A stretch of DNA of 32,000 nucleotides from Edaphobacter aggregans (GCF_003945235.1 NZ_RSDW01000001.1:1020001-1052000), one strand, 5' to 3'. Counted from the first letter of the stretch, positions 3,881-27,454 are shown. The notes: generated from the sequence alone by a model not told the origin. Translations and numbers: made by a program.

Positions 3881-5740
3881 ATGCAGCGTTTGCTTTCTCT
3901 GATTTTTTTTCCTGCCCTCACTTCCCTCGCCCTCGCACAGACTCCCGCTCAACAACCAGCGCCCAGCGAGCCTGTCCCTACCATTAAGGCAGGCACGCAG
4001 ATCGTCATTGTGGACGTCGTCGTCACCGACGCCAAGAACCAACCCGTCCGCAATCTCAAAGCCTCCGACTTCACCGTCCTGGAAAACAACATCTCCCAGC
4101 CCATCAGGAACTTCGAAGAGCACACGGCCCTCTCCGCCGCCGACGCAGCAAAGCTACCTCCCATGCCCAAGATGCCCCCGGGCATCTTCACCAACTACAC
4201 ACCCGCGCCCCCCAGCAGCGCCGTCAACGTCCTCCTGCTCGATACGCTCAACACACCGATGAAGGACCAGTCCTTCGTCCGCGACCAGTTGAAGAAGTAC
4301 CTTAAGTCAGCCCAACCCGGCGCCCGCACCGCCATCTTCGGCCTCACCTCGCGCCTCTATCTCCTGCAGGGCTTCACCTCCGATCCAGAGATCCTGAAGA
4401 CCGCCCTTAACCAGAAGGACCTCAAGTCATCGCCCCTGCTTGACGACCCGGTCGGCGGCGGCACTGGCCCCGAGTCCATGTCTGACACGATGAGCGACAG
4501 CATGGGCAATGACCCCAGCACAGCCCAGGTCGTCGCAAATCTCCAGCAGTTCGAGGCCGAACAACAGTCCTTCCAATTGCAGCTTCGCGCCCGCTATACC
4601 CTCGACGCCATGAACCAGCTCGCCCGCTATCTCAGCGGAATTCCCGGCCGTAAGAACCTCATCTGGTTCTCCGGCTCCTTCCCTATCAGCATCCTTCCCG
4701 ACGGCGACCTGCAGAACCCCTTCGCCGTCGTCGCCGACTCCGAGGATGAATTCCGCGAGACCACAAACCTTCTCTCAACCAGCCAGGTCGCTGTCTATCC
4801 TATCGATGCCCGCGGCCTCATGTCCTCGCCCAGCTACAGCGCCACCAACTCAGGCAGCAAATACGCCCGCAACCCTACGGCCTTCGCCAAAGACGAAACC
4901 AAGTTCTTCCAGCAGACCACCGCCGAGCACAGCACCATGCTTCAAATGGCCGAGCAGACCGGTGGCCACGCCTTCATCAACACCAACGGTCTCAGCCAGG
5001 CAGTGGCCAGCGCCGTCGACTCCGGCTCGAACTTCTACACCCTTACCTACTCCCCCACCAACACGAACTGGAATGGCGGCTTCCGCAAGATCCAGGTCCG
5101 TCTCCAGCAACAAGGCCTCACCCTCGCCTATCGCCGCGGCTACTACGCCGACGACCCAAAGACTCCTCCCAAACATAAAGAGCCTGTGCCCGCCATAACC
5201 ACACCCACTGCGACCGTCAACGCCATGCGCGTGGCCATGATGCGCGGCGCCCCTGACCCTACCCAGATTCTCTTCAAGATCCTCGTCCGTCCCGCCACTG
5301 CGTCAACTGAAGACGCTCTCGCCCCGGACAACGCTCCTAATCCCACGACCAAAGTGAAGCCTCCCTATCGGCGCTACAGCATCGATTTCGCAGCCAACCC
5401 ACGCGACATCACCTTCACCCGATCCCCCGAGGGCAACTACCAAGCTGACATTCAGTTCCTCGCCTATCTCTACGATCAGGACGGGACCCTACTTAACACT
5501 ACCGGTGCCGCTGTCAAGGCAAACATGCCCCCAGCAGCCTACGCAGCGAGCCTCCGCGGCGGCCTACAGTTTCACCAGCAGATCAGCGTGCCCGCCAAAG
5601 GCGCCTATTATCTCCGTATCGGTATCCACGATGTCACCGGAGACCGTGTGGGAGCGATCGAGATTCCGGTGGCAGCAGTGTCCAAAATGCCTCCCGCCGA
5701 CACGCCCGCCACCTCATCAACCCCGTCCTCAACCAAATAG
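3881..5740 (+). CDS. Secreted VWA-domain protein, acidobacterial VWFA-related type (619 aa)
   Basis: ATG 3881 yields the signal peptide MQRLLSLIFFPALTSLALAQ. The N-terminal beta module (IVIVDVVVTDAKNQPVRNLKASDFTVLENN) followed by a VWA-like core (VNVLLLDTLNT ... IWFSGSFP ... VAVYPIDARG) resembles the TIGR03436-type family as I recall it. The ORF-track start at 3842 is rejected because it gives no signal peptide. Confidence 0.8.
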   Translation: MQRLLSLIFFPALTSLALAQTPAQQPAPSEPVPTIKAGTQIVIVDVVVTDAKNQPVRNLKASDFTVLENNISQPIRNFEEHTALSAADAAKLPPMPKMPPGIFTNYTPAPPSSAVNVLLLDTLNTPMKDQSFVRDQLKKYLKSAQPGARTAIFGLTSRLYLLQGFTSDPEILKTALNQKDLKSSPLLDDPVGGGTGPESMSDTMSDSMGNDPSTAQVVANLQQFEAEQQSFQLQLRARYTLDAMNQLARYLSGIPGRKNLIWFSGSFPISILPDGDLQNPFAVVADSEDEFRETTNLLSTSQVAVYPIDARGLMSSPSYSATNSGSKYARNPTAFAKDETKFFQQTTAEHSTMLQMAEQTGGHAFINTNGLSQAVASAVDSGSNFYTLTYSPTNTNWNGGFRKIQVRLQQQGLTLAYRRGYYADDPKTPPKHKEPVPAITTPTATVNAMRVAMMRGAPDPTQILFKILVRPATASTEDALAPDNAPNPTTKVKPPYRRYSIDFAANPRDITFTRSPEGNYQADIQFLAYLYDQDGTLLNTTGAAVKANMPPAAYAASLRGGLQFHQQISVPAKGAYYLRIGIHDVTGDRVGAIEIPVAAVSKMPPADTPATSSTPSSTK

Positions 5741-5774
5741 GCTGCTGGTACCCAGCTATTGAAAGCATCAAACT

Positions 5775-6842
5775 TCATTGTGAAGAAGCCGACGATCCAG
5801 AGGAAGAAAGGCCTCCGGAGGATGCCTGGGTTTGCTGGAGGAGACGATATCCATCCCGAGTCCGTATGTGATACTTCTGCAGATCCTTCCCTACCAGCTT
5901 GACCGTGATCGAACGCCAGCCATGATTTGGATTTGGCTGAGGATAGTAACTGAGCGCATAGAGATGGGCCAAGTCATCACGGATGGAGGCAAACGCTTGC
6001 TTCTCATCTTTCCAATCCTTTGAAAAATAGGCTTTGCCACCAGTAGCCTTGCTCATTCTCTCAAAGACAGCGGTAGAAACCGGCTCCTCTTCCGCTTGCC
6101 GAGTGCTGATCATGTAAATGATCGTTCCGGTTGACTGGGCCAACTCCGCTACATCCTCAGGGGGTACCAGGCTGGCATTGTCAGGGCCATTAGAAAAGAC
6201 AACAATTGCCTTGCGCCCGGTCAATTGGGCTGCGTCCTTTACCGTCATCAAGAGGCAGTTATAGAGTGCTGCGTCATCACCGGCGACCGTATTACGCACT
6301 CCACGTAACACCTGGGAGCGGTCGGGGGTAAGCGCGGAGACCCGTGAGAGATCGCGGCTATAAGAATACAAGGCCACTTTGCTCACACCTTCCAATGACC
6401 GAATGAAATCGGCGATAGCATCCTGCGCGAATACAAATCCCCGGTACATGTAGTTACTGGTGTCAAAAAGAATAAATACATTAGCTCCGGCAACTGACGC
6501 TTGAAACTTTCCCTGGTCGCCCGTCATCTCCGGCGCAACTGGCTCTGATGCCTTGACCACACTCTGCGCTGAGTGACCGCTATCGGGTCCAATCAATCTA
6601 CGCGTGGGTTCGTTACCTTCTTCGAAAGTCGCGAGCTTTTCCGGAATCTTGTCCTCAACAATCTCAAAGTCTTCTGGACGAAGGCCGCTGACGTAGTTTC
6701 CCTTACGGTCAGTAACAGCTACATTCAGCTGCACCAGCACGACGTTCACACGAATACGTGACGCGTCATCCTGCGCCCCTGCCCCCCCGCCGAAGAAAAG
6801 AACTGAAGATGCACAGAGAAATAGAAAAACTCGCTTTGCCAT
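5775..6842 (-). CDS. Secreted VWA-domain protein, acidobacterial VWFA-related type (355 aa), paralog of 3881-5740
   Basis: ATG 6842 is preceded by AGGGGGA and gives the signal peptide MAKRVFLFLCASSVLFFGGGAGAQ. It has the same N-terminal module (VVLVQLNVAVTDRKGNYVSGLRPEDFEIVEDK) and a VWA core (VFILFDTSNYM ... IVVFSNGPDN ... IIYMISTR). It starts 7 nt after the stop of the upstream 1064-aa gene. Confidence 0.8.
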   Translation of the reverse strand: MAKRVFLFLCASSVLFFGGGAGAQDDASRIRVNVVLVQLNVAVTDRKGNYVSGLRPEDFEIVEDKIPEKLATFEEGNEPTRRLIGPDSGHSAQSVVKASEPVAPEMTGDQGKFQASVAGANVFILFDTSNYMYRGFVFAQDAIADFIRSLEGVSKVALYSYSRDLSRVSALTPDRSQVLRGVRNTVAGDDAALYNCLLMTVKDAAQLTGRKAIVVFSNGPDNASLVPPEDVAELAQSTGTIIYMISTRQAEEEPVSTAVFERMSKATGGKAYFSKDWKDEKQAFASIRDDLAHLYALSYYPQPNPNHGWRSITVKLVGKDLQKYHIRTRDGYRLLQQTQASSGGLSSSGSSASSQ

Positions 6843-17768: not shown

Positions 17769-19091
17769 TCAAAAAAAGGATGCTGCAAGAAAAATCCTGA
17801 TCTGTCGAACAAGCTGAAGTTTCGACATTCGCCAGTAAAGACCGCGCCCAATGGTGTCAACGCTGGCACAACTGTGTGAGGCGAAACGAGAGACCAAGTA
17901 AACGAAGTATTGCAGATAGGGGTGTAGTTCGCGTGATTGCGTCGCTCGATCGCTGACCATTCGAACCAATGGCGTATTCATCCGCGCGAAGTGGGTGGGG
18001 ATTAAAGTTCGTTTAAGCAGTTTTAATTTTGCCATAGGGGATTTCAGAAAGCTCATGTGGAGCCATAGGAAATCCTTATTCATATGCGACATATCTTCAA
18101 TGGAAGACATCGCAAAACGGCGCAACCATTGCCGCTGCAATGATGGCAAACTTTCGATTGCTTTCAGAACGTGTGGGTTGAGATTGCAACCAAACAAAGA
18201 TCGAGCGTAGTAGAAAGCGATTGCCTCACAGGATTGAAGAGTAGCATCATGTGTCTCGGACCAGGCCGCCCAGAAGGTATCATCTTCGGCTCGACGATGA
18301 AGAAAAATAGCCAACTCGTAAACGTGATGAAGGATCGTATCTCGCAGGAAAATATTCCGCAGTATATGAAGAGCAAGATAACCGAGGTTATCGACAGGGG
18401 AAAGAGAAGTAAAGGTAAAACCATCGATGGCCCTCATGGTGCGTCGATCCCAGAAACGGTCGATCGCAGCTACGTGAAAATAGGAAACGGATCGGTTCCA
18501 AAGGCAGAAGTGCAACTCGATGGAAAGTGGCATCTCAGGATCGAATGAATTTTCTCTCCAGCGCCAGTCGCCCATACGATTCATGGTGCGATCATGGTCG
18601 GCGTAGGTGTAGCTCTGTTGGTCGTTCGGGGTGTAACCAATTCCTTGCAAGGCGATTCGCGCGGATTTGATCATCTCTGGTGGACAGTAAAGATCAAGAT
18701 CGGATTGTGCTCGCAGACGCGGGTCTTCAACATAGTCAGGAGCCTGAGTGAATCCCTTAATCACAACATGGTTGACTCCCGCCCTGTCGAGCGCTTCTGC
18801 TGCTTCCCTGTAGGTGGCCTTTACGCGCTCGAAGCGCAAGGCGTTGTCAGCGACGTTCGTCTTGAGCCTTTCGACAACCCACGATGGAAAGCCGTCTTTT
18901 GGAAGCTGTGCAAGCGATAGCGTCAGGTGCCCCAGGTCGCAAAACGCGAGCAGGCTGCCCCACTCATGATCTTCCAACTGCGCCAATGATGCTATATCCG
19001 GTTCGCGCAGATGAAGTGCCCTTATGAGAGCAGCGACCGCTCGAGGGACCTTCAAAGGAGACACGTCAGATGTAATCGTGTGTGCATTCAT
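17769..19091 (-). CDS. Uncharacterised nucleotidyltransferase family protein (NTP_transf_5-like), 440 aa
   Basis: The core VVIKGFTQAPDYVEDPRLRAQSDLDLYCPPEMIKSARIALQGIGY ... SIELHFCLW matches my recollection of the PF14907 pattern (KG...R...D[IL]DL...GY...ELH). Confidence 0.7.
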   Translation of the reverse strand: MNAHTITSDVSPLKVPRAVAALIRALHLREPDIASLAQLEDHEWGSLLAFCDLGHLTLSLAQLPKDGFPSWVVERLKTNVADNALRFERVKATYREAAEALDRAGVNHVVIKGFTQAPDYVEDPRLRAQSDLDLYCPPEMIKSARIALQGIGYTPNDQQSYTYADHDRTMNRMGDWRWRENSFDPEMPLSIELHFCLWNRSVSYFHVAAIDRFWDRRTMRAIDGFTFTSLSPVDNLGYLALHILRNIFLRDTILHHVYELAIFLHRRAEDDTFWAAWSETHDATLQSCEAIAFYYARSLFGCNLNPHVLKAIESLPSLQRQWLRRFAMSSIEDMSHMNKDFLWLHMSFLKSPMAKLKLLKRTLIPTHFARMNTPLVRMVSDRATQSRELHPYLQYFVYLVSRFASHSCASVDTIGRGLYWRMSKLQLVRQIRIFLAASFF

Positions 19092-19210
19092 AGAAGGTCT
19101 ACGCCCTTAAGTGTCAATTTCGGTAGCGCAGGTACAAAGTAGAACGAGAATTTGGTATCGAGGTCGGAGACGACAAGGTTGTGGTCGTCGGCGATACAGT
19201 CGAGCCGCAT
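19088..19210 (-). CDS. Micro-ORF (40 aa, MRLDCIADDHNLVVSDLDTKFSFYFVPALPKLTLKGVDLL); possible precursor peptide or truncated PqqD/RRE-like remnant
   Basis: The ATG lies 4 nt after the cupredoxin stop, and its TGA overlaps the nucleotidyltransferase ATG (ATGA). An alternative upstream ATG at 19252 with GGAAG gives 54 aa. There is no homology evidence. Confidence 0.35.
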   Translation of the reverse strand: MRLDCIADDHNLVVSDLDTKFSFYFVPALPKLTLKGVDLL

Positions 19211-19214
19211 AACC

Positions 19215-19577
19215 CTAGTCCGTGACGTGAACGGTAAAGACCATCGATCCATGGCCGCTTCCGCAAAATCTTCCGCACACCCCATGGAAGTCTCCGGAGC
19301 GATTTGGCGCGACAGTCACATCGACCGGGTGTCCCTTGAGCATTTCTTGCTTGATGTGCAGGTCGGGAACAACAAGACTATGAGCAACATCGTCGGAGAT
19401 CAGTCGAAGTTTGACGGTCTCTCCTTTCTTTAGCCTGATTTCGGCGGGGGAAAAGGCAAACCGATGCGCATGTATCTCGATGGTGCGAATCTGCTCCTGC
19501 GCCAACGATGTTGATGCTTCTCGTATGACAAGACCAAGCATCAACATCGCAGGCAAGACTCTCCGTATCCACTTCAC
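19215..19577 (-). CDS. Secreted cupredoxin-fold protein with CuA-type ligand motif, 120 aa (GTG start)
   Basis: Signal peptide MKWIRRVLPAMLMLGLV...SLAQ. The C-terminal HGVCGRFCGSGHGSM matches H...C-x3-C-x3-H-x2-M copper ligand spacing. AGAGGA lies 7 nt upstream of the GTG. Confidence 0.75.
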   Translation of the reverse strand: MKWIRRVLPAMLMLGLVIREASTSLAQEQIRTIEIHAHRFAFSPAEIRLKKGETVKLRLISDDVAHSLVVPDLHIKQEMLKGHPVDVTVAPNRSGDFHGVCGRFCGSGHGSMVFTVHVTD

Positions 19578-19719: not shown

Positions 19720-19761
19720 GAGTATAGGAACTATCGAAACTCGATTTGTCACTGCAATGTC

Positions 19762-19772
19762 GACAATTTGTC
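19762..19772. promoter_or_regulatory. Inverted repeat GACAA-t-TTGTC, with further GACAA/TTGTCA copies nearby (candidate operator)
   Basis: Palindrome at 19762-19772. Related copies are TTGTCA at 19746-19751, CGACAAAGTCG at 19808-19818 and TGACAAAT at 19819-19826. Confidence 0.25.
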
Positions 19773-19840
19773 AAAGTCTTTAGCGTGACGAACTTCGCGC
19801 CAAATCCCGACAAAGTCGTGACAAATAGAACGACGCGGCT

Positions 19841-20110: not shown

Positions 20111-23100
20111 ATGCTTACCCTGTCACGATGCACGACCGTCGTTACACTGATCAGCGCTCTGGCTGTAACAGCCATGTACGGACAGGCTCCTGGAACCGGC
20201 GCCATAAACGGCCGCGTCTTTGATGCAGCACGATTGCCCATCGTGAACGCGCAGATATTTGTAGTGAACGAATCAACGCACACATCGAGAATAGTTGCTA
20301 CCACTGCTGAAGGCTTCTTTTCGGCGCCTCTGCTTACCCCGGGATCTTATTCGGTGACAGTGCAACAACCCGGCTTTGAAGGGAAAGAAGCACAGAAAAT
20401 TCTCGTAGCAGTGGGGGAGATAACTTCACTTGCGTTCACTTTATCGGTCGCGCAACACCATGAGACTGTGCAGGTGAACGCGGATGTAGAACTTGTGCAG
20501 GCGCAGAGCGCGACCCTGGGCCGCTCCGTAGATGACCGGGCCATCCAGGCCTTGCCTCTCGCAAATCGCAACTTCACGCAGATTCTTTCGCTTTCTCCAG
20601 GAGTCATTGTCTCGCTGCCCGATGCCACAACTCTTGGACGGGGCACCCAGAACGTCGCTACCAACGGAAATAAAACGACAGCCAACAATATTCAGTTCAA
20701 TGGCATTGATGCCAACAATCTTTCGCAAAACTCTGCTGAGAGCGACGGCGAAGAAGTGGGTGTCGCTGTTCCAGCCCCCGACTCCATTCAGGAGTTCAAG
20801 GTACAGACTGCAAATTACGATGCCACGTATGGCCGTGGTACCGGTGCAAACGTAGATTTGGTGAGCAAGGCTGGAACAAATCAGTTTCACGGCAGTGCAT
20901 GGGAGTTCATTCGAAATGACATCTTCAACGCCAACACGTTTTTTCTAAAGCGTTCCGGCCAACCTCGCCCGGTGCTCAAGCAGAACCAATTCGGGGTCTC
21001 GCTCGGTGGCCCGATTTTCAAAGACAAGACCTTTTTCTTTGCCGCCTATCAAGGACTCCGCTCCAGCAATGGCCTTGGCAACACTTCGACTGTTTTTCTA
21101 CCGCAGTTGACCTCCGATCGATCCGCCGCGACGCTTGGAGCTGAGTTCTGCTCGTCGGGGCCGACGAACGCTGGCGGAACGCAACTGGCCTGTGATGGCT
21201 CCAACATTAATCCTGTAGCGCTGAAACTGCTCAATTTCAAATTCTCGAATGGCCAGTTCGCTGTGCCGGCTCCGCAGATACTGCTTCCGGAAACTCCCGG
21301 ACAGACACCTATCGGCCAAAGTACATTCTCGATCCCGGCAACCTATAAGGAGGACCAGTTCACCGGAAATCTGGATCAGACGATTGCCGCCAAGGATCAG
21401 GTGATGGCCCGATTCTTTTACTCCCACGCTCCTACGATTCAACCATTCTCTTCAAATGCTGCGAATTTACCTGGATGGGGAACAAATGAGCTAGATCAAA
21501 ACGCCATGCTGGTTCTGGGATACACCCATGTCTTTAATTCGAACATGGTGAATCTCGCGCGGTTTGGCTATATGCGCTTCGATGGAATCGCGTCCATTGC
21601 CGCTCCCATCTCGACCGCCGATATTGGAACTCAGTCGCCTTTGGGTGTCTCAAGTACGAACGTTACCGCGCCCTACATCAGTGTCAATGGGTTATTCATT
21701 GTTGGCGCAATAACCCCTTTTCAAGACCAAGTCACCAACACGTTTGTCTGGCAGAATACGCTTTCGATGACGAGCGGGCGCCATTCTCTGCGCATCGGTG
21801 TCGAAGCAAAACATCATCAGGTCATGGTGAACCCGCCATTCGGCATTGCAGGTGCCATAGAGACGCGGACCTTCAATGATTTTCTGCTTGGTCAGAGTGC
21901 CGCGCAGAATGGGAGCCCGAACGGACTCAGCAATGTGCAATTGAGTAATGGCGCTTCAGGAATCTTTCGAAGGGATGAACGTTACAACGATTTAGCCGCA
22001 TTTGTGCAGGATGACATTCGTCTCTCCTCACGGGTATCCATCTTTGCTGGCATACGATACGAGATCTTCGGTGCTCCTACAGAGGAAAACGGACGACTTG
22101 CGATCTTCGATCCCTCTATAGCGTCACCCACCGCGCCTCCAAGTGGAACTTTCAGCGGGTTTGCAGTTACGAACAACTTTCCGGGCGCCATACCTGATGG
22201 CGTCCTTCGTCTGAATCGCAATGGCCTATGGCCTAACAACTACTTCAATATTTCACCGCGAATAGGCTTTGCTGTTCGGCTTACAGATAGGCCAACAATC
22301 TTGGTACGCGGTGGTTATGGAATCTACTTCGATCGATTATCGGCGGGGCTAGTAGAGAACCTGGTAAATCAACCTCCATTCGCACTAACACAAACTCTCT
22401 CAGATGCACAGAATGGCGCCGCAACTGAACAGCAGCCATTCAATCCGATACTGCCTCCAACGAGCAGTTATCCAATCTTCATGCCGCGCGTCCCGGGCGG
22501 AGCTCAGTCACTCTTTCAGGTTGACCCCAACGTTACCGATCCTTACACGCAGGAATACAACCTGAACATCCAGTCCTCATTCGCTCGCGACTATCTGTTT
22601 GAAGTGGGCTATGTGGGAACTCGCTCGCTGCATATTCCTGGAGGGGTCGAATTCAATCAGGCTCTCCTTGCAAGCCCTCAACATCCAATCAATGGAGAAA
22701 CTACAAATACCGTTGCTAATATCACGAACCGTTTACCCTTTGATGGCGTAAGCACTGGGTCGATTATCTTTCAAACCCGGTTTCCATCGAACTTCAACTC
22801 ACTGCAGACGAGTCTCACCAAACGCATCAGTCATGGCTTACAGTTTCTCGCCGGCTACACGTGGTCGAAGAGTATGGACGAGACGAGCGGCACTGGAGGC
22901 AGCGAAGTCTTTGAAGAGTGGCTGTTATCGAACGATCAGAACAACCCTCGACAGGCCTATGGCCCCACAGATTTTGATCGCACCCATCGCTTCGTATTCA
23001 GTCTTGTCTATCAAACACCATCTTTTTCTTCAGCCCCCCGCCTGACTCGAAATATATTGGGCAACTGGCAGGCATCGGCAATTGCCGTTGCACAGTCGGG

Positions 23101-23542
23101 ATCAGCCCTGACAATTCTGGACAGCAACGCGGGACTGGTCTATGGGAACTTTGAAAACCGCGCGCAGAGACCTACTTCCAATCCATTAACACCGGGTTCG
23201 GTCTACGATCGCGCGTTGGGGCACTATCTGGATGCCAACGCGTTCCCTTCCGCTCCCATGGCTCCCAACGGAGTAACAGCGTCGGATACAGATTTCGGCA
23301 ACAGCAGTACTGGCTTCTTGCGCGGCCCCGGCCAGCGCAATCTCGATCTGGCGCTGGAACGTTCCTTCCCGATCTTTGAACGGATGACCTTTCACTTCCG
23401 CACGGAGTTCTTCAATATTACGAACACCCCTAACTTTGCGAATCCGAACAACAATCTCAGCTCAGGTCAGGCATTCGGAACAATAACTGGCACTTCAAAT
23501 AATCCACGCATCATTCAGTTTGCGGGAAAAATCCTCTTCTAG
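20111..23542 (+). CDS. TonB-dependent outer-membrane receptor with N-terminal carboxypeptidase-regulatory-like domain, 1143 aa
   Basis: Signal peptide, then GAINGRVFDAARLPIVNAQIFVVNE...GSYSVTVQQPGFE (CarboxypepD_reg-like). Plug-like motifs follow (LPLANRNFTQILSLSPGV). A long beta-barrel region ends in the terminal aromatic ...QFAGKILF. Confidence 0.88.
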   Translation: MLTLSRCTTVVTLISALAVTAMYGQAPGTGAINGRVFDAARLPIVNAQIFVVNESTHTSRIVATTAEGFFSAPLLTPGSYSVTVQQPGFEGKEAQKILVAVGEITSLAFTLSVAQHHETVQVNADVELVQAQSATLGRSVDDRAIQALPLANRNFTQILSLSPGVIVSLPDATTLGRGTQNVATNGNKTTANNIQFNGIDANNLSQNSAESDGEEVGVAVPAPDSIQEFKVQTANYDATYGRGTGANVDLVSKAGTNQFHGSAWEFIRNDIFNANTFFLKRSGQPRPVLKQNQFGVSLGGPIFKDKTFFFAAYQGLRSSNGLGNTSTVFLPQLTSDRSAATLGAEFCSSGPTNAGGTQLACDGSNINPVALKLLNFKFSNGQFAVPAPQILLPETPGQTPIGQSTFSIPATYKEDQFTGNLDQTIAAKDQVMARFFYSHAPTIQPFSSNAANLPGWGTNELDQNAMLVLGYTHVFNSNMVNLARFGYMRFDGIASIAAPISTADIGTQSPLGVSSTNVTAPYISVNGLFIVGAITPFQDQVTNTFVWQNTLSMTSGRHSLRIGVEAKHHQVMVNPPFGIAGAIETRTFNDFLLGQSAAQNGSPNGLSNVQLSNGASGIFRRDERYNDLAAFVQDDIRLSSRVSIFAGIRYEIFGAPTEENGRLAIFDPSIASPTAPPSGTFSGFAVTNNFPGAIPDGVLRLNRNGLWPNNYFNISPRIGFAVRLTDRPTILVRGGYGIYFDRLSAGLVENLVNQPPFALTQTLSDAQNGAATEQQPFNPILPPTSSYPIFMPRVPGGAQSLFQVDPNVTDPYTQEYNLNIQSSFARDYLFEVGYVGTRSLHIPGGVEFNQALLASPQHPINGETTNTVANITNRLPFDGVSTGSIIFQTRFPSNFNSLQTSLTKRISHGLQFLAGYTWSKSMDETSGTGGSEVFEEWLLSNDQNNPRQAYGPTDFDRTHRFVFSLVYQTPSFSSAPRLTRNILGNWQASAIAVAQSGSALTILDSNAGLVYGNFENRAQRPTSNPLTPGSVYDRALGHYLDANAFPSAPMAPNGVTASDTDFGNSSTGFLRGPGQRNLDLALERSFPIFERMTFHFRTEFFNITNTPNFANPNNNLSSGQAFGTITGTSNNPRIIQFAGKILF

Positions 23543-23543
23543 C

Positions 23544-24599
23544 ATGCAAAAACACTCGCGAAACGGTAGAGAAGAACAGCGGTTGCTGACAATTCCAGAA
23601 ATCGAAGCTATATACGCAAGGTCGGAGCTGATACCTCCCACCGATCCTGTCTATGCTCGAATGGAGTTCCCCTTCAAGAGAAGGTTTTATCCACTCGGAT
23701 TTCCAGTAGATATATCTACGAATACGGAGGAGGTATTAGAGGCTGCCGCGCAGAGTTGGGCAACCTTCACAGAGGCCTTTCAGACTCCGCCCATCCGAAT
23801 CCAGATAGGCGTTATGGAAGGACTCTCTTCCGAGTGTCCTCCAGCACCAACGTGCCGGGTACAACAACATCTCTTTTCGTACGTTGCCGATCAAGAAAAC
23901 TTTGGCATGAATGATATGGCTCGCGGCTTTTCCTGTATCTGGCTGACGGAAGCGGCAGTGAGACACCGTAGTTACTTACGGCATTTCTTTCTCGATTGTG
24001 CGGTCTTTTGCCAGATTGCGACGCGATGCGCAACTGGAGTGCACGCAGCTTGCGTGATCCGCGACGGCATCGGAGTACTGTTGTGCGGCGACTCCGGCGC
24101 TGGGAAATCGACGCTGTCTTATGCCTGCGCCAAAGCTGGCTGGACCTACGTGACAGATGATCTGAGTTTTGTAATTCATGACCGCGACGACCGTTTGGTG
24201 TCAGGTAACTGCCATCAGTTACGTTTCCGACCATCCGCGGGCTCGATCTTCCCGGAGATTGAAGGCCGCGAGATCACGCAGCGCGCGGAAGTTGGCAAGC
24301 CATCGATTGAGTTAGGGGCAACGGCATTGCAAAACATAGACCGATCCCAGACAACCGAAATTAAATACGTAGTCTTCCTGAATCGGCGAGATGGCAACAA
24401 CGCGGCAATCAGGCCCTACTCAAAAGAAATCGCCAGGCATTTCATAGGACAAGGGCGATTCAGCCCACTGGATTTGATGCCTCGACATTACGAGGCTATT
24501 GACAGACTCCTTCAGGCGGACGTCCTGGAACTGCGCTATCGCGATCTCGATTGGGCGATTGAACAACTCGAAGCACTGGTGGAGACCGCGCGTCCATGA
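23544..24599 (+). CDS. HPr kinase/phosphorylase-like P-loop kinase (stand-alone HprK C-terminal-like domain plus unknown ~180-aa N-terminal domain), 351 aa
   Basis: VHAACVIRDGIGVLLCGDSGAGKSTLSYACAKAGWTYVTDD matches the HprK/P catalytic core pattern (HG-V-x-G-GVL-x-G-SG-GKS-x-L-G-LV-DD). The ATG is 1 nt after the receptor stop, and the TGA overlaps the MFS ATG. Confidence 0.75.
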   Translation: MQKHSRNGREEQRLLTIPEIEAIYARSELIPPTDPVYARMEFPFKRRFYPLGFPVDISTNTEEVLEAAAQSWATFTEAFQTPPIRIQIGVMEGLSSECPPAPTCRVQQHLFSYVADQENFGMNDMARGFSCIWLTEAAVRHRSYLRHFFLDCAVFCQIATRCATGVHAACVIRDGIGVLLCGDSGAGKSTLSYACAKAGWTYVTDDLSFVIHDRDDRLVSGNCHQLRFRPSAGSIFPEIEGREITQRAEVGKPSIELGATALQNIDRSQTTEIKYVVFLNRRDGNNAAIRPYSKEIARHFIGQGRFSPLDLMPRHYEAIDRLLQADVLELRYRDLDWAIEQLEALVETARP

Positions 24600-25888
24600 T
24601 TCCGGAGCGAACGGTGCACAAGGCTTCTGGTCGCGATCTCTCCCTATGGCAGCGCGCACAATCTCGCCTGCGGCACTTGCACAGTGGCTTCTGGACCTTA
24701 TATGCATCGTCATTTCTGATTGACCTCGGGCTTTGTCTTTATCTCTTCATGTTCAGCCTCTTTTTGGTGGAACATCACTTCACAGAGCGAGTCATCGGAT
24801 ACATCACTGCGGCTTTGACAATCGGCACCCTAGCCGGCACAGTGCCAAGCAGTCTCCTGGCAAAACGTCTGGGACTGCGGACCATGTTGGTGGTGTATAT
24901 CATCGCTGTTCCTCTGTGTTTTGCATCGCGTGTTTTCCTTCTACAGATGCCGGCACAGTTGTGGTTAGCATTCCTGAGCGGAATGGCGATGAGCATTTGG
25001 TCCGTATGCTTTTCTCCAACGCTTGCAAAACTAACAACGCACGAAAACAGAGCATTCGGTTTCAGCATATTTGTCGCTACAGGAATAGGCGCAAGTGCGC
25101 TGGCGGGGTTACTCGGCGGTTATCTTCCTGATCAGTTCCAGCGTCTCGGCCGAGCAGGTTCTCAAGTGGATGGAATCAGAATCGTACTGTTGCTGGCCTG
25201 CATCATCCTCGCTCTTGCCTTGTTTACGATACTCAAACTGCATTTACGTTTGGATGAAACCGGGCAGACGAGCGGCAAGGTGTTCAGCGGATTCCTTCTG
25301 CGCTTTCTGGTAGCCATTGCAGTTTGGAACTTCGCACTAAATTTCTTTACACCCTTTGCAAATGTTTATCTCTCAAGGCATCTTGGCCTTCCGGTGACGC
25401 GTATCGGAGCAATATTTTCGTCTTCCCAGCTGATGCAGGTGGCCGTCATCCTGATGGCTCCTCTTCTTTACCGCAGGGTGGGGCTTGTCACTGGACTTGC
25501 AATAACACAACTGGCCACCGCTTCGTTGCTTTGGGGACTTTCGCGGGCATCTGGACTGACGATCGCACCCTACATCTATCTGCTATTAGCATCGGTGCAA
25601 TGGACTGCTGGCCCTGGAATTGCTTCACTCTTAATGAATCGCACACCCGAGAAGCACAGAAGCCAGGCTACCGCGATCCAGAATATTGTGAATCTGGCAA
25701 CGCAAGCGGGCTCTGCGGCGCTAGCCGGAAAACTTTTTGAGCAATATGGATATTCCAGGCCGCTCGCAGCAAATGCAGGAATAGCCGTTCTGGCTGCCGT
25801 CCTGCTGTACACGCTGCTTGGGCGGAATAATCGAAATCATCGCATGGCGCAGACAGTATTGATGGAAAGCTCAGAAGTCCGGCCCTAA
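24596..25888 (+). CDS. MFS transporter, 430 aa
   Basis: About 12 hydrophobic helices, an MFS-like loop motif (LLAKRLGLRTML) and a central hydrophilic loop. The ATG overlaps the kinase stop (ATGA). Confidence 0.8.
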   Translation: MIPERTVHKASGRDLSLWQRAQSRLRHLHSGFWTLYASSFLIDLGLCLYLFMFSLFLVEHHFTERVIGYITAALTIGTLAGTVPSSLLAKRLGLRTMLVVYIIAVPLCFASRVFLLQMPAQLWLAFLSGMAMSIWSVCFSPTLAKLTTHENRAFGFSIFVATGIGASALAGLLGGYLPDQFQRLGRAGSQVDGIRIVLLLACIILALALFTILKLHLRLDETGQTSGKVFSGFLLRFLVAIAVWNFALNFFTPFANVYLSRHLGLPVTRIGAIFSSSQLMQVAVILMAPLLYRRVGLVTGLAITQLATASLLWGLSRASGLTIAPYIYLLLASVQWTAGPGIASLLMNRTPEKHRSQATAIQNIVNLATQAGSAALAGKLFEQYGYSRPLAANAGIAVLAAVLLYTLLGRNNRNHRMAQTVLMESSEVRP

Positions 25889-25972: not shown

Positions 25973-26126
25973 ACGGTCGATAGCGGCACGTTCATCTCAA
26001 AACGCAAGTGACAATCAATTGACAAAAAACAGACTCTTAGAGAACACATCCGAAGACGCGTATCGCTAATGTAATGCTATGCAGCGATCGATACTGAGCT
26101 TCTCTTTTCTAAATAGGATGCGGACT

Positions 26127-27131
26127 ATGAGGCGAATCGCTCTCGCTCTGGTTTTGTTTTGTTCTATGAGATACGGGACCGCACAAAACACGCCACTAAT
26201 CTCCGGCGGAGTTGGTTTTTTGACATCTACAAATGGTGGTAATACGACATATCTACCAATTATCGAACCTCTTTTCGCCGCTCCAATTGGTAACCATTTT
26301 TTTGTCGAATCGCGAGCGGCATTGGTCGAGGTCTTTTTCCCGAATGGCAATGGTTACGGCCACACCCATTCCATCGGGCTTACATATCTGCAGGGAGCCT
26401 ACCTCGCTTCTCCGCATATCACCGTAGTCGGCGGCAGCTTTCTAATTCCGTTTGGCACCTACAATGAGCGTCTATCCCCTGTATGGATCAACAATTTACA
26501 GGACGGGCCATTGATCTCCAGTCTGGGCACCATGTCTACTGGCACTGGTCTGGGCGGGATGATGCGCGGATCGGCCATCTCGCGACGTAAATACTCCATC
26601 GATTACGCCGCATACTTCTCCGCCTTAAGCCAAAACGAACAGTTCAATGCCAGGCGTTCCTCCGGTGGCCGGGTCAACCTTTACCTCCCCGAAAGTCGTC
26701 TGGAGATCGGGTTCTCTTATAACCGTCTACTGCAAGGCACGCAGGAGAACTTTTATGGCACACACGTTTGGTGGCAGCCAAAGAACACCGCCCTTCGCCT
26801 GCGCTCCGAGTTCGCACGCGGCGGTCACGCGCAGGGCTACTGGATCGAAGCCGACTATCGCTTGCAACGGTTCGGTGGCCCCGATAGTTGGATTGGCCGA
26901 ATCGAGCCCGTGTTCCGTATGCAACAAACTTTTCGCCTCGACACAAGCGCCAGCGACGGTCTCCCCCTTGTAAACACACAGCGGGCCGACTTCGGGTTGA
27001 ACTACAATCTGCCGCACAACACGAGAATACTTACCAGTTACTCAAGGCAGTTCTCTTCCACCGGCAATACCAATATCTGGGAGACAGGAATTGTCTATCG
27101 TTTCCTGTTTCCCGCCTGGAAAGGAAAATGA
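26127..27131 (+). CDS. Outer-membrane beta-barrel (porin-like) protein, 334 aa
   Basis: Signal peptide MRRIALALVLFCSMRYGTAQ. The rest shows alternating amphipathic, aromatic- and Gly-rich segments (YNLPHNTRILTSYSRQF, ETGIVYRF). The start at 26127 is chosen for AGGA 8 nt upstream; 26118 is also possible. Confidence 0.65.
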   Translation: MRRIALALVLFCSMRYGTAQNTPLISGGVGFLTSTNGGNTTYLPIIEPLFAAPIGNHFFVESRAALVEVFFPNGNGYGHTHSIGLTYLQGAYLASPHITVVGGSFLIPFGTYNERLSPVWINNLQDGPLISSLGTMSTGTGLGGMMRGSAISRRKYSIDYAAYFSALSQNEQFNARRSSGGRVNLYLPESRLEIGFSYNRLLQGTQENFYGTHVWWQPKNTALRLRSEFARGGHAQGYWIEADYRLQRFGGPDSWIGRIEPVFRMQQTFRLDTSASDGLPLVNTQRADFGLNYNLPHNTRILTSYSRQFSSTGNTNIWETGIVYRFLFPAWKGK

Positions 27132-27454
27132 CCATGCGCCAGAGATATCTTTTCGCTGGCTGCCTTGTCTTAGGGGCTGCCTTTACCACTTCGCTAGCTG
27201 AGTTACAGGCCCAATCGCGCCACACTCCACCACCCACCGCCCAAACAGACAAAAAACAGACGGCCTCCACACCAGGCTCTCAGCAGCAACAGAATGAGGG
27301 AGCGCGCATCTTCGAACAGAACTGCTCACGCTGCCACACAGCTCCGGATGGCTTCTCGCCACGTATCTCCGGTACGATCGTTCGTCACATGCGGATTCGG
27401 GCATCGCTCAGCCAACATGACGAACAGGAGCTACTGCGCTTCTTCAATCCATAA
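27128..27454 (+). CDS. Monoheme c-type cytochrome, exported, 108 aa
   Basis: Single CxxCH (EGARIFEQNCSRCH), an N-terminal signal sequence and a candidate distal Met (VRHM). The ATG overlaps the porin stop (ATGA), with AAGGA upstream. Confidence 0.75.
   Translation: MTMRQRYLFAGCLVLGAAFTTSLAELQAQSRHTPPPTAQTDKKQTASTPGSQQQQNEGARIFEQNCSRCHTAPDGFSPRISGTIVRHMRIRASLSQHDEQELLRFFNP

Follow-up and report, generated by a model that had tools for sequence, protein, structure and literature searches.

The stretch of DNA analysed here, referred to as the window, is a 32,000-nt segment of the Edaphobacter aggregans genome (NZ_RSDW01000001.1:1020001-1052000), and all positions are counted along the whole of it unless another locus is named. 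It carries a row of three genes on one strand, encoding a TonB-dependent transporter (TBDT) of the Oar class, a two-domain P-loop kinase, and a permease of the major facilitator superfamily (MFS), and a divergent gene for a nucleotidyltransferase of the NTP_transf_5 family (PF14907), termed NT5 (Table 1). An original prediction, made from the sequence of the window, had proposed that the kinase, likened to the HPr kinase/phosphorylase HprK/P, acts on a substrate right after its import across two membranes. Genome-wide searches relied on the 6.15-Mb host genome, a single contig that is 99.98% complete.

Table 1. Genes and repeats of the kinase locus, with positions in the window and the basis of each assignment (HMM, hidden Markov model; AF2, AlphaFold).
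Feature	Position (nt)	Strand	Basis
Oar-class TBDT, 1143 aa, with signal peptide, CarboxypepD_reg N-terminal extension, Plug, and large beta-barrel	20111-23542	+	Pfam PF25183, 681 bits; PF13620, 62.6 bits; PF07715, 24.1 bits
Two-domain P-loop kinase, cytoplasmic; 351 aa from ATG 23544, 338 aa from TTG 23583	23544-24599	+	Pfam, HMMs, AF2 model
MFS permease, 430 aa	24596-25888	+	Pfam MFS_1, 99.3 bits
NT5, NTP_transf_5 (Pol-beta-type) nucleotidyltransferase, 440 aa, divergent	17769-19091	-	Pfam PF14907, 117.9 bits
Exported cupredoxin with a CuA motif, leading the divergent cupredoxin-NT5 operon	19215-19577	-	Pfam COX2, Cupredoxin_1; recurs in relatives' loci
POR, outer-membrane beta-barrel-like protein, 350 aa	26079-27131	+	No Pfam match; in 49/81 loci
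Exported monohaem cytochrome c, 108 aa, overlapping the POR stop	27128-27454	+	Weak Pfam Cytochrome_CBB3; co-occurs with POR in relatives
11-bp-phased [TC]GACAWW direct repeats, divergent promoter region	19745-19825	- at 19745, 19756; + at 19808	Pattern search
TGACAAT-N4-TGACAAA, phased repeat lying 53-70 nt upstream of the start of POR	26009-26026	+	The 6.15-Mb genome has just one other strict match

The junctions of the three-gene row lie where the original prediction had placed them. The TBDT gene ends with a TAG at 23540-23542, followed after one base by an ATG at 23544, and the TGA of the kinase gene (24597-24599) overlaps the ATG of the MFS gene (24596-24598) in an ATGA. The predicted 1-nt interval between receptor and kinase genes holds for translation from ATG 23544; kinase homologues of 337-338 aa, however, start at the position of an in-frame TTG at 23583 (MLTI...), and if this conserved codon is the start, the interval grows to 40 nt. 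Since the distance from the TBDT stop to the conserved kinase start is 21-68 nt in 41 of 42 loci, the real start of the kinase gene may be the one that leaves the 40-nt gap. No clear Shine-Dalgarno sequence was found at either candidate start (23544, 23583), and the spacing is operon-like with both. Terminator-like signals were no more frequent than expected by chance (10 found versus 10.5 expected), and none fell at the TBDT/kinase/MFS junctions. From the spacing, together with the conservation described below, we infer that the three genes are probably co-transcribed. Neither the kinase nor NT5 carries a signal peptide.

The translated kinase contains the motif GVLLCGDSGAGKSTLSYACAKAGWTYVTDD, which the original prediction had quoted as the catalytic core of HprK. 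Its GDSGAGKS P-loop is encoded at nt 24087-24110 and its TDD motif at nt 24153-24161; none of 22 close and 12 broad homologues departs from GDSGAGKS, TDD, or VHAAC, and even at 21-38% identity the Lys of the P-loop, the His in front of this loop, and the Asp-Asp pair do not vary, nor do one Asn and one Asp residue in the N-domain. An HprK-type core, comprising the P-loop, the Asp-Asp pair, and the upstream His, is thus retained. As a whole, the protein is not HprK/P, and it falls below every curated family cut-off: it scored 31.5 bits with PF07475 (Hpr_kinase_C; cut-off 33.3), 27.9 bits with TIGR00679 (HprK/P; cut-off 240), and 31.7 bits with TIGR04249 (ScmC; cut-off 125), and the best curated match, to TIGR04352 (HprK-related kinase A, HprK_rel_A; 51.3 bits, cut-off 200, E = 8.4e-14), covered only the C-terminal domain. 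Precomputed annotations assign homologues of the kinase to a newer Pfam family, PF27840 (ScmC). When the kinase was searched against the PDB by sequence, only about 58-60 residues around the P-loop aligned to HprK/P (E = 3e-5; structures 1ko7 and 1jb1).

A more complete picture of the fold was obtained from an AlphaFold (AF2) model built on 22 homologues, with a mean confidence score (pLDDT) of 86.9. The top Foldseek matches were ATP-dependent phosphoenolpyruvate carboxykinases (PEPCK), which aligned over both domains (E = 2.6e-8; TM-score normalised to the query, TMq, 0.41-0.49), followed by the isolated HprK/P catalytic domain (TM-score normalised to the target, TMt, 0.55-0.65), whereas full-length HprK structures matched the C-domain only (TMq 0.29). 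Because PEPCK aligns over both kinase domains and HprK over the C-domain alone, the N-domain, approximately residues 14-160, is not of the HprK type, in agreement with what had been suspected by eye, and the whole kinase looks in this model like a minimal two-domain kinase of the PEPCK type. No HPr gene (PF00381, E <= 0.01) was detected in the 6.15-Mb genome, which extends the earlier observation of its absence from the window to the complete genome, and HPr therefore cannot be the substrate of the kinase; the window kinase is the only PF07475-like gene in the genome. A metal or iron-sulphur site formed by the Cys residues of the kinase (CPPxPxC) was considered and discarded, as the Cys motifs are not conserved outside Acidobacteriaceae. 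In RefSeq, the homologues P0107, P0109, and P0081 (from Occallatibacter, Telmatobacter, and Terracidiphilus) are called 'aldolase', a name that receives no support from the present data.

To what extent the gene row is shared was addressed by a synteny survey. A word-indexed search with the kinase returned more than 2455 homologues, the best 120 of which were 49-96% identical and 320-379 aa long. In a scan of GTDB with one genome per species, 512 loci encoded a relative of the kinase; the best 80, which were used, all came from Acidobacteriaceae/Terriglobales. The open reading frames (ORFs) of 81 loci were clustered, and 54 of these loci, with at least 8 kb on each side, constitute the full-flank subset. 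An MFS gene lay directly downstream of the kinase gene on the same strand in 71 of the 81 loci and an orthologous TBDT gene directly upstream in 66; among the full-flank loci, the numbers were 50 for the MFS gene, 43 for the TBDT gene, and 42 for both. Taking the most upstream start of the MFS gene, 52 of 56 loci show an overlap with the kinase stop. The TBDTs encoded beside the kinase are orthologues 49-74% identical to the window TBDT, compared with about 28% for the other TBDTs of the genome. The TBDT-kinase-MFS arrangement is therefore found far beyond chance, and the receptor-kinase-MFS linkage of the original prediction is upheld by the 42 full-flank loci with both transporters. With the linkage conserved across relatives, the notion that the kinase gene is an insertion unique to this strain fails. 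The gene order is not fixed in the wider class, the sequence in a distant family (locus L088) being kinase-TBDT-MFS.

Within Acidobacteriaceae, the distribution of the kinase module is patchy: it is present in 16 of 150 genomes that were drawn evenly from the genera. Cultured carriers include Granulicella mallensis, Terracidiphilus gabretensis S55, Occallatibacter savannae AB23, and Telmatobacter sp. DSM 110680. Searched against a protein library clustered at 50% identity, a profile of the kinase recovered 353 proteins at E <= 1e-30, a number that rose to 1150 when the limit was relaxed to E <= 1e-10. An 837-aa open frame in one genome (G424) had suggested a fusion of kinase and MFS permease, but stop-to-stop ORFs resolved it into two separate genes. 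In six loci (relatives L060-L081, type C), a gene for an ATP-binding cassette (ABC) half-transporter of about 586 aa precedes the kinase gene or the TBDT-kinase pair, so that the operon can hold two inner-membrane transporters; the protein was called exporter-like from inspection of its sequence.

The comparison of loci also points to NT5 as a fourth, obligate member of the module, overlooked in the original prediction. The NT5 gene lies within 10 kb of the kinase gene in 27 of the 54 full-flank loci and adjoins it in more distant homologues (L089, L090, L094). The catalytic KG...DxD motif of the Pol-beta type is invariant. The structural model of NT5 (pLDDT 79.8) yielded only weak Foldseek neighbours (E = 0.008-0.05), namely MenT, LnuA, ANT(2'')-Ia (TMt 0.60-0.65), Cid1, and FKRP, and sequence searches of the PDB with NT5 and with the TBDT gave no matches. 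In L088, the TBDT gene is followed by a gene (3903-6317 of that locus) for a single protein of 804 aa, in which an NTP_transf_5 domain at the N-terminus is joined to a C-terminal MFS_1 domain. Such NT5::MFS fusions form at least 424 clusters at E <= 1e-10, and all 120 listed members hold both domains; the proteins are 720-866 aa long, are named only 'MFS transporter' in the sources, and, where carriers are named, derive from Bryobacteraceae, Ca. Sulfopaludibacter, 'Acidoferrales', and other Terriglobia. Seven fusion contexts were examined (L088, L096, L097, L098, L102, L103, and L104). The kinase gene is immediately upstream in all seven, and in six the TBDT gene stands between kinase and fusion. 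As a Rosetta-stone fusion, NT5::MFS would place NT5 at the cytoplasmic face of the permease and would tie the four proteins together as one functional unit. Based on gene order and domain fusion, the module is a conserved four-part set of kinase, NT5, MFS permease, and Oar-class TBDT.

As judged from the gene content of the loci, this set sits mostly in surface-polysaccharide loci of Acidobacteriota (Terriglobia). Polysaccharide genes occur no farther than 10 kb from the kinase gene in 44 of the 54 full-flank loci, and the families encountered in relatives comprise Wza (Poly_export/SLBB), Wzi, Wzy_C, a Wzx-type flippase, Wzz, GT4, WecG/TagA, and Wzc-like and Bac_transf-like families, the last two labelled from their sequences. 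A signal-peptide-bearing glycerophosphodiesterase (GDPD)-HEAT protein is encoded directly after the MFS permease in 18 of the 54. Two locus types are of particular relevance for what follows. In type B loci, a Wzx gene and a WecG/TagA-type transferase gene of their own come right after the MFS gene. In L096, L098, L102, and L103, a common block of the Bryobacteraceae type has the order GT4 / kinase-TBDT-NT5::MFS / GT4-Wzy_C-Wzz, and in three of these four, L103 being the exception, a second Wzy_C gene follows Wzz.

The window represents a reduced version of such loci, with NT5 and cupredoxin genes on one strand and the TBDT-kinase-MFS row, followed by the POR and cytochrome genes, on the other. 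At least one exported redox or outer-membrane protein is encoded in 52 of the 54 full-flank loci, and an OmpR-type two-component system in 31; the corresponding two-component, omp514, and p243 genes of the present genome lie 87 kb from the module. POR was found in 15 of the 16 kinase-positive genomes of the Acidobacteriaceae census, mostly within 15 kb of the kinase gene, and in 45 of the 150 overall; as POR thus nearly always accompanies the kinase while also occurring more broadly, the kinase module is an accessory of a larger cluster. Recurring pairs near the kinase gene are POR with the 108-aa cytochrome c, and a 514-aa outer-membrane protein (omp514) with a 243-aa cupredoxin-like protein (p243); the CuA-motif cupredoxin together with a 176-aa cytochrome c recurs as well. 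One possibility is that these barrel and redox pairs serve as porin partners of Wza-type exporters, another that they carry out periplasmic redox chemistry.

The repeats listed in Table 1 suggest a regulatory connection between these genes. Phased [TC]GACAWW pairs number 8 genome-wide, compared with 1.5 expected, and 4 of the 8 fall in the two intergenic regions of the module. In the loci of relatives, their density is 65 per Mb versus 1.3 per Mb in this genome, a roughly 50-fold difference, and there they are located mostly upstream of cupredoxin, POR, Wzx, and TBDT genes. This distribution supports, without proving, co-regulation of the TBDT-kinase-MFS operon with its neighbours, and the repeats are likely to be operators of the OmpR-type regulator of the supercluster, putative as that assignment is. 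In this genome, the region upstream of the gene for the response regulator, at 1.136 Mb, was searched for phased repeats, and none were detected. A Pho-regulon interpretation of the repeats was also considered; the neighbours of the response regulator are omp514 and p243 rather than pst or phoU. In the lineage whose kinase-TBDT-NT5::MFS module occurs by itself, with no glycan genes, genes for extracytoplasmic-function (ECF) sigma factors are found directly upstream (10567-11148 in L088; 3692-5592 in L104), which suggests a different regulatory wiring.

A ribosomally encoded substrate was sought among small ORFs. Clustering of 1497 intergenic ORFs, each 18-99 aa long and drawn from about 80 loci, gave no family that recurred in more than six loci, and the few recurrent ones look like translated regulatory DNA; the search thus yielded no conserved precursor peptide. 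A 54-aa micro-ORF between the cupredoxin and NT5 genes (19088-19252, minus strand) matches only the same species (L003); at its position, relatives have either a short gap or the gene for the 176-aa cytochrome c. Pfam scans of the window ORFs detected no PqqD/RiPP recognition element (RRE), lasso cyclase, protease, or radical-SAM protein (RiPP, ribosomally synthesised and post-translationally modified peptide). Elsewhere in the genome, at approximately 2.008 Mb (2006700-2009500), a second triad encodes a 260-aa HprK_rel_A-like protein, the only PqqD of the genome, and a 408-aa NTP_transf_5 protein, in the vicinity of phosphomannomutase, GDP-mannose pyrophosphorylase, acyltransferase_3, and cytidylyltransferase genes. 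The window kinase and the 260-aa protein share about 29% identity over about 100 residues.

Taken together, the data would be accommodated best, although with a confidence that stays somewhat below even, by a route of salvage and decoration for a surface glycan, analogous to the Lic-1 and carbohydrate-utilisation (CUT) systems described below. In this scheme, the TBDT and the MFS permease would import a substrate across both membranes, with the permease moving it across the inner one; the kinase would phosphorylate the substrate at the cytoplasmic face; NT5 would build on the phosphate, either by activation to a nucleoside diphosphate (NDP) derivative or by a transfer that forms a phosphodiester; and the product would be placed on an exopolysaccharide. 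Of these elements, we infer which way transport runs, what kind of substrate is handled, and that the kinase acts before NT5. By analogy with the chemistry of kinases and nucleotidyltransferases in lasso-peptide tailoring, the kinase probably phosphorylates a hydroxyl group, and NT5 probably acts on the resulting phosphate. Salvage and decoration fits the presence of a TBDT, the tight TBDT-kinase-MFS order, the fusion of NT5 to the MFS permease, the phosphodiesterase of the periplasm, and the setting among polysaccharide genes. It is also supported by the lack of a conserved small ORF for a peptide substrate, by the fold match of the kinase, PEPCK being a small-molecule kinase, and more weakly by the structural analogues of NT5, which have sugar hydroxyls as their targets or transfer phospho-alcohols (ANT(2'')-Ia, LnuA, FKRP). 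Phosphorylation after two-membrane import, as originally predicted, is hence kept as the leading model, but the simple trapping or inactivation of a nutrient that it was thought to serve is less likely, because the location of the module in exopolysaccharide loci of most relatives favours the feeding or tailoring of a glycan.

Several observations weigh against glycan salvage. Neither the kinase nor NT5 has homology to known kinases of sugars or choline or to sugar-phosphate nucleotidylyltransferases, and the curated-family relatives of the kinase (HprK_rel_A, ScmC, and the lasso kinases) are tied to peptide substrates. Pfam scans of the ORFs of the 32-kb window revealed no glycan genes, loci of the L088/L104 type likewise contain the module without nearby polysaccharide genes, no GDPD gene was found near the module in this genome, and a search of the genome for a LicD-type transferase (PF04991) was negative. 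The subfamily of the MFS permease gives no clue to its direction, all NCBIfam matches being marginal; in sequence and profile searches of the PDB, the only matches were a bacterial homologue of ferroportin (E = 0.0026), EmrB (E = 0.035), and spurious WD40 matches, which do not indicate a direction. Finally, the Bryobacteraceae-type block, with no visible flippase, initiating phosphoglycosyltransferase, or Wza, also fits a role in biosynthesis or export.

In this last alternative, which is possible but distinctly less probable, transport would run outward: a glycan or small product linked through phosphate would be primed in the cytoplasm by the kinase and NT5, as PsmK and PsmN do on serine, then flipped or exported by the MFS permease and passed through the outer membrane by the Oar-class TBDT. 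Enzyme-transporter fusions are common in synthase-exporters, which counts in favour of this alternative, as do the positions of the NT5 gene beside Wza, on the same strand, in many Acidobacteriaceae loci and of the exporter-like ABC half-transporter gene ahead of the kinase gene in six. The Bryobacteraceae-type block, apart from its missing Wzx and Wza, is also devoid of a Bac_transf gene in three of the four loci. In a specific and rather doubtful form of the proposal, the kinase and NT5 would replace initiation by a polyprenyl-phosphate/phosphoglycosyltransferase, the MFS permease, fused or not, would be the flippase, and the Oar-class barrel the exit through the outer membrane; a phosphate-primed route of this kind would explain a block with glycosyltransferases, Wzy, and Wzz in which no initiating transferase, Wzx, or Wza is visible. 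Type B loci, however, possess their own Wzx and WecG/TagA-type transferase after the MFS permease, so that a second flippase would be redundant there, and the module stands alone without glycan genes in the window, L088, and L104. Nearly all characterised TBDTs import, and we know of no TBDT that exports a glycan. In favour of export, an Oar-class TBDT is needed for the secretion of PopC (PMC6434023).

The peptide connection of the kinase families raises the alternative of RiPP-like tailoring, in which the kinase would phosphorylate Ser/Thr of a peptide, NT5 would glycosylate or nucleotidylate the phosphate, the MFS permease would export the product, and the TBDT would re-import it, possibly as a metallophore. 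The closest curated families, HprK_rel_A (E = 8e-14) and ScmC, are indeed kinases of peptide systems, the homologues carry PF27840, a pair of kinase and NTP_transf_5 protein is known from lasso peptides (PMC8498205), a second triad of kinase-like, PqqD, and NT5 proteins exists at 2.008 Mb, and cupredoxin and cytochrome genes belong to the same putative regulon. This is nevertheless unlikely given the absence of PqqD/RRE, cyclase, protease, and radical-SAM genes from the window, small ORFs that recur in at most six of about 80 loci, a 54-aa micro-ORF confined to the species, and kinase Cys motifs that are not conserved across the family. Still less probable is a regulatory role akin to that of HprK/P, with phosphorylation of a transporter domain or of a regulator of polysaccharide synthesis controlling the envelope polysaccharide: HprK-family members are protein Ser kinases, and a two-component system is part of the supercluster in 31 of 54 loci, but the genome lacks HPr, the full-length fold is closer to PEPCK than to HprK, and obligate pairing with a nucleotidyltransferase and two transporters is not typical of a regulator. 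Inactivation of a xenobiotic or antibiotic, with an imported toxin O-phosphorylated and O-nucleotidylylated in the manner of APH and ANT enzymes and then removed by MFS efflux, is very improbable. Kinase, nucleotidyltransferase, and MFS permease do resemble a resistance toolkit, and ANT(2'')-Ia and LnuA are among the structural analogues of NT5; yet these Foldseek matches are weak (E = 0.008-0.05), a dedicated TBDT that imports a toxin would make no sense, and both the placement in polysaccharide loci and the shared operator would be left unexplained.

Whichever of these functions applies, the module is widespread, with at least 353 kinase clusters, at least 424 NT5::MFS clusters, and 512 GTDB species genomes. 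Acidobacteriota rank with the most abundant bacteria in soil, and their exopolysaccharides influence how soil aggregates and how the cells survive in acidic, metal-rich habitats; to our knowledge, the genetics of these polymers has barely been explored. With carriers in culture and the fusion of NT5 to the MFS permease, the module is accessible to experiments.

Like HprK/P, the kinase has a G-D-S-G-x-G-K-S Walker A sequence with a His before it and an Asp-Asp pair downstream, and the catalytic domains of the two have the same fold. The kinase differs from HprK/P in its N-domain, in the absence of HPr, and in the placement of its gene in a transporter operon rather than in a context of the phosphotransferase system (PTS) or carbon control. 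Parallels exist in the tailoring of lasso peptides, where a homologue of HPr kinase (PadeK/ThcoK/PsmK) phosphorylates the C-terminal Ser at its hydroxyl group, and the nucleotidyltransferase PsmN is required for the addition of one to two hexoses to that phosphate (PMC8498205, PMC11912497). The enzyme families are the same, an HprK-like kinase and a nucleotidyltransferase of the NTP_transf_5 type, but here the pair comes without cyclase, protease, RRE, or precursor and is coupled to an MFS permease and a TBDT in polysaccharide loci. That a pair known only from lasso-peptide tailoring recurs in a setting of transport and polysaccharide synthesis suggests a general chemistry of phosphorylating first and then building on the phosphate. 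The HPr-rel-A system, consisting of a TIGR04352 kinase A, a PqqD-family chaperone, and a nucleotidyltransferase, shares the NT5 partner and a neighbourhood of the polysaccharide type, and the triad at 2.008 Mb of this genome is of its kind; unlike its kinase, the window kinase lacks a PqqD partner and has an N-domain longer by about 80 aa, and the coupling to transporters is specific to its subfamily.

The overall logic is reminiscent of the decoration of surface glycans with phosphocholine by Lic-1, in which a GDPD (GlpQ), a permease (LicB), a kinase (LicA), and a nucleotidyltransferase (LicC) cooperate with LicD (PMC10434233). A periplasmic GDPD, present in a third of the loci, a permease, a kinase, and a nucleotidyltransferase reappear here, the genes of the latter three being linked and those of NT5 and the MFS permease fused in other lineages, but the proteins are not homologous to LicB, LicA, or LicC, nor to others of the system, and a TBDT is added. 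NT5 might cover the LicD step, considering that FKRP is among its weak fold matches. In the GlcNAc CUT system of Xanthomonas, Nix TBDTs, the MFS permease NagP, and NagK kinases make up one uptake system (PMC4173781), and CUT and polysaccharide-utilisation loci (PUL) in general share with the present module a TBDT, an inner-membrane MFS permease, and a cytoplasmic kinase in one locus. The differences are the HprK/PEPCK fold of the kinase, the additional nucleotidyltransferase, and a context that is biosynthetic, directed to exopolysaccharide, instead of catabolic; Pfam scans detected no glycoside hydrolases or catabolic enzymes in the window or among the conserved neighbour families. At the outer membrane, the TBDT has a CarboxypepD_reg extension, a Plug, and a barrel of the 22-strand type, the architecture defined for Oar of Myxococcus xanthus, a TBDT required for secretion of the protein PopC (PMC6434023); the likeness is one of domain architecture alone, and the cargo of Oar is a protein. 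Full-text literature searches found no description of a kinase-NT5-MFS-TBDT module, in line with the original view that the operon layout had not been described, whereas the underlying combination of TBDT, MFS permease, and kinase is familiar from CUT loci (PMC4173781). What is new here is the enzyme families involved and their coupling to NT5, the polysaccharide setting, and the fusion of NT5 and MFS domains in a single protein.

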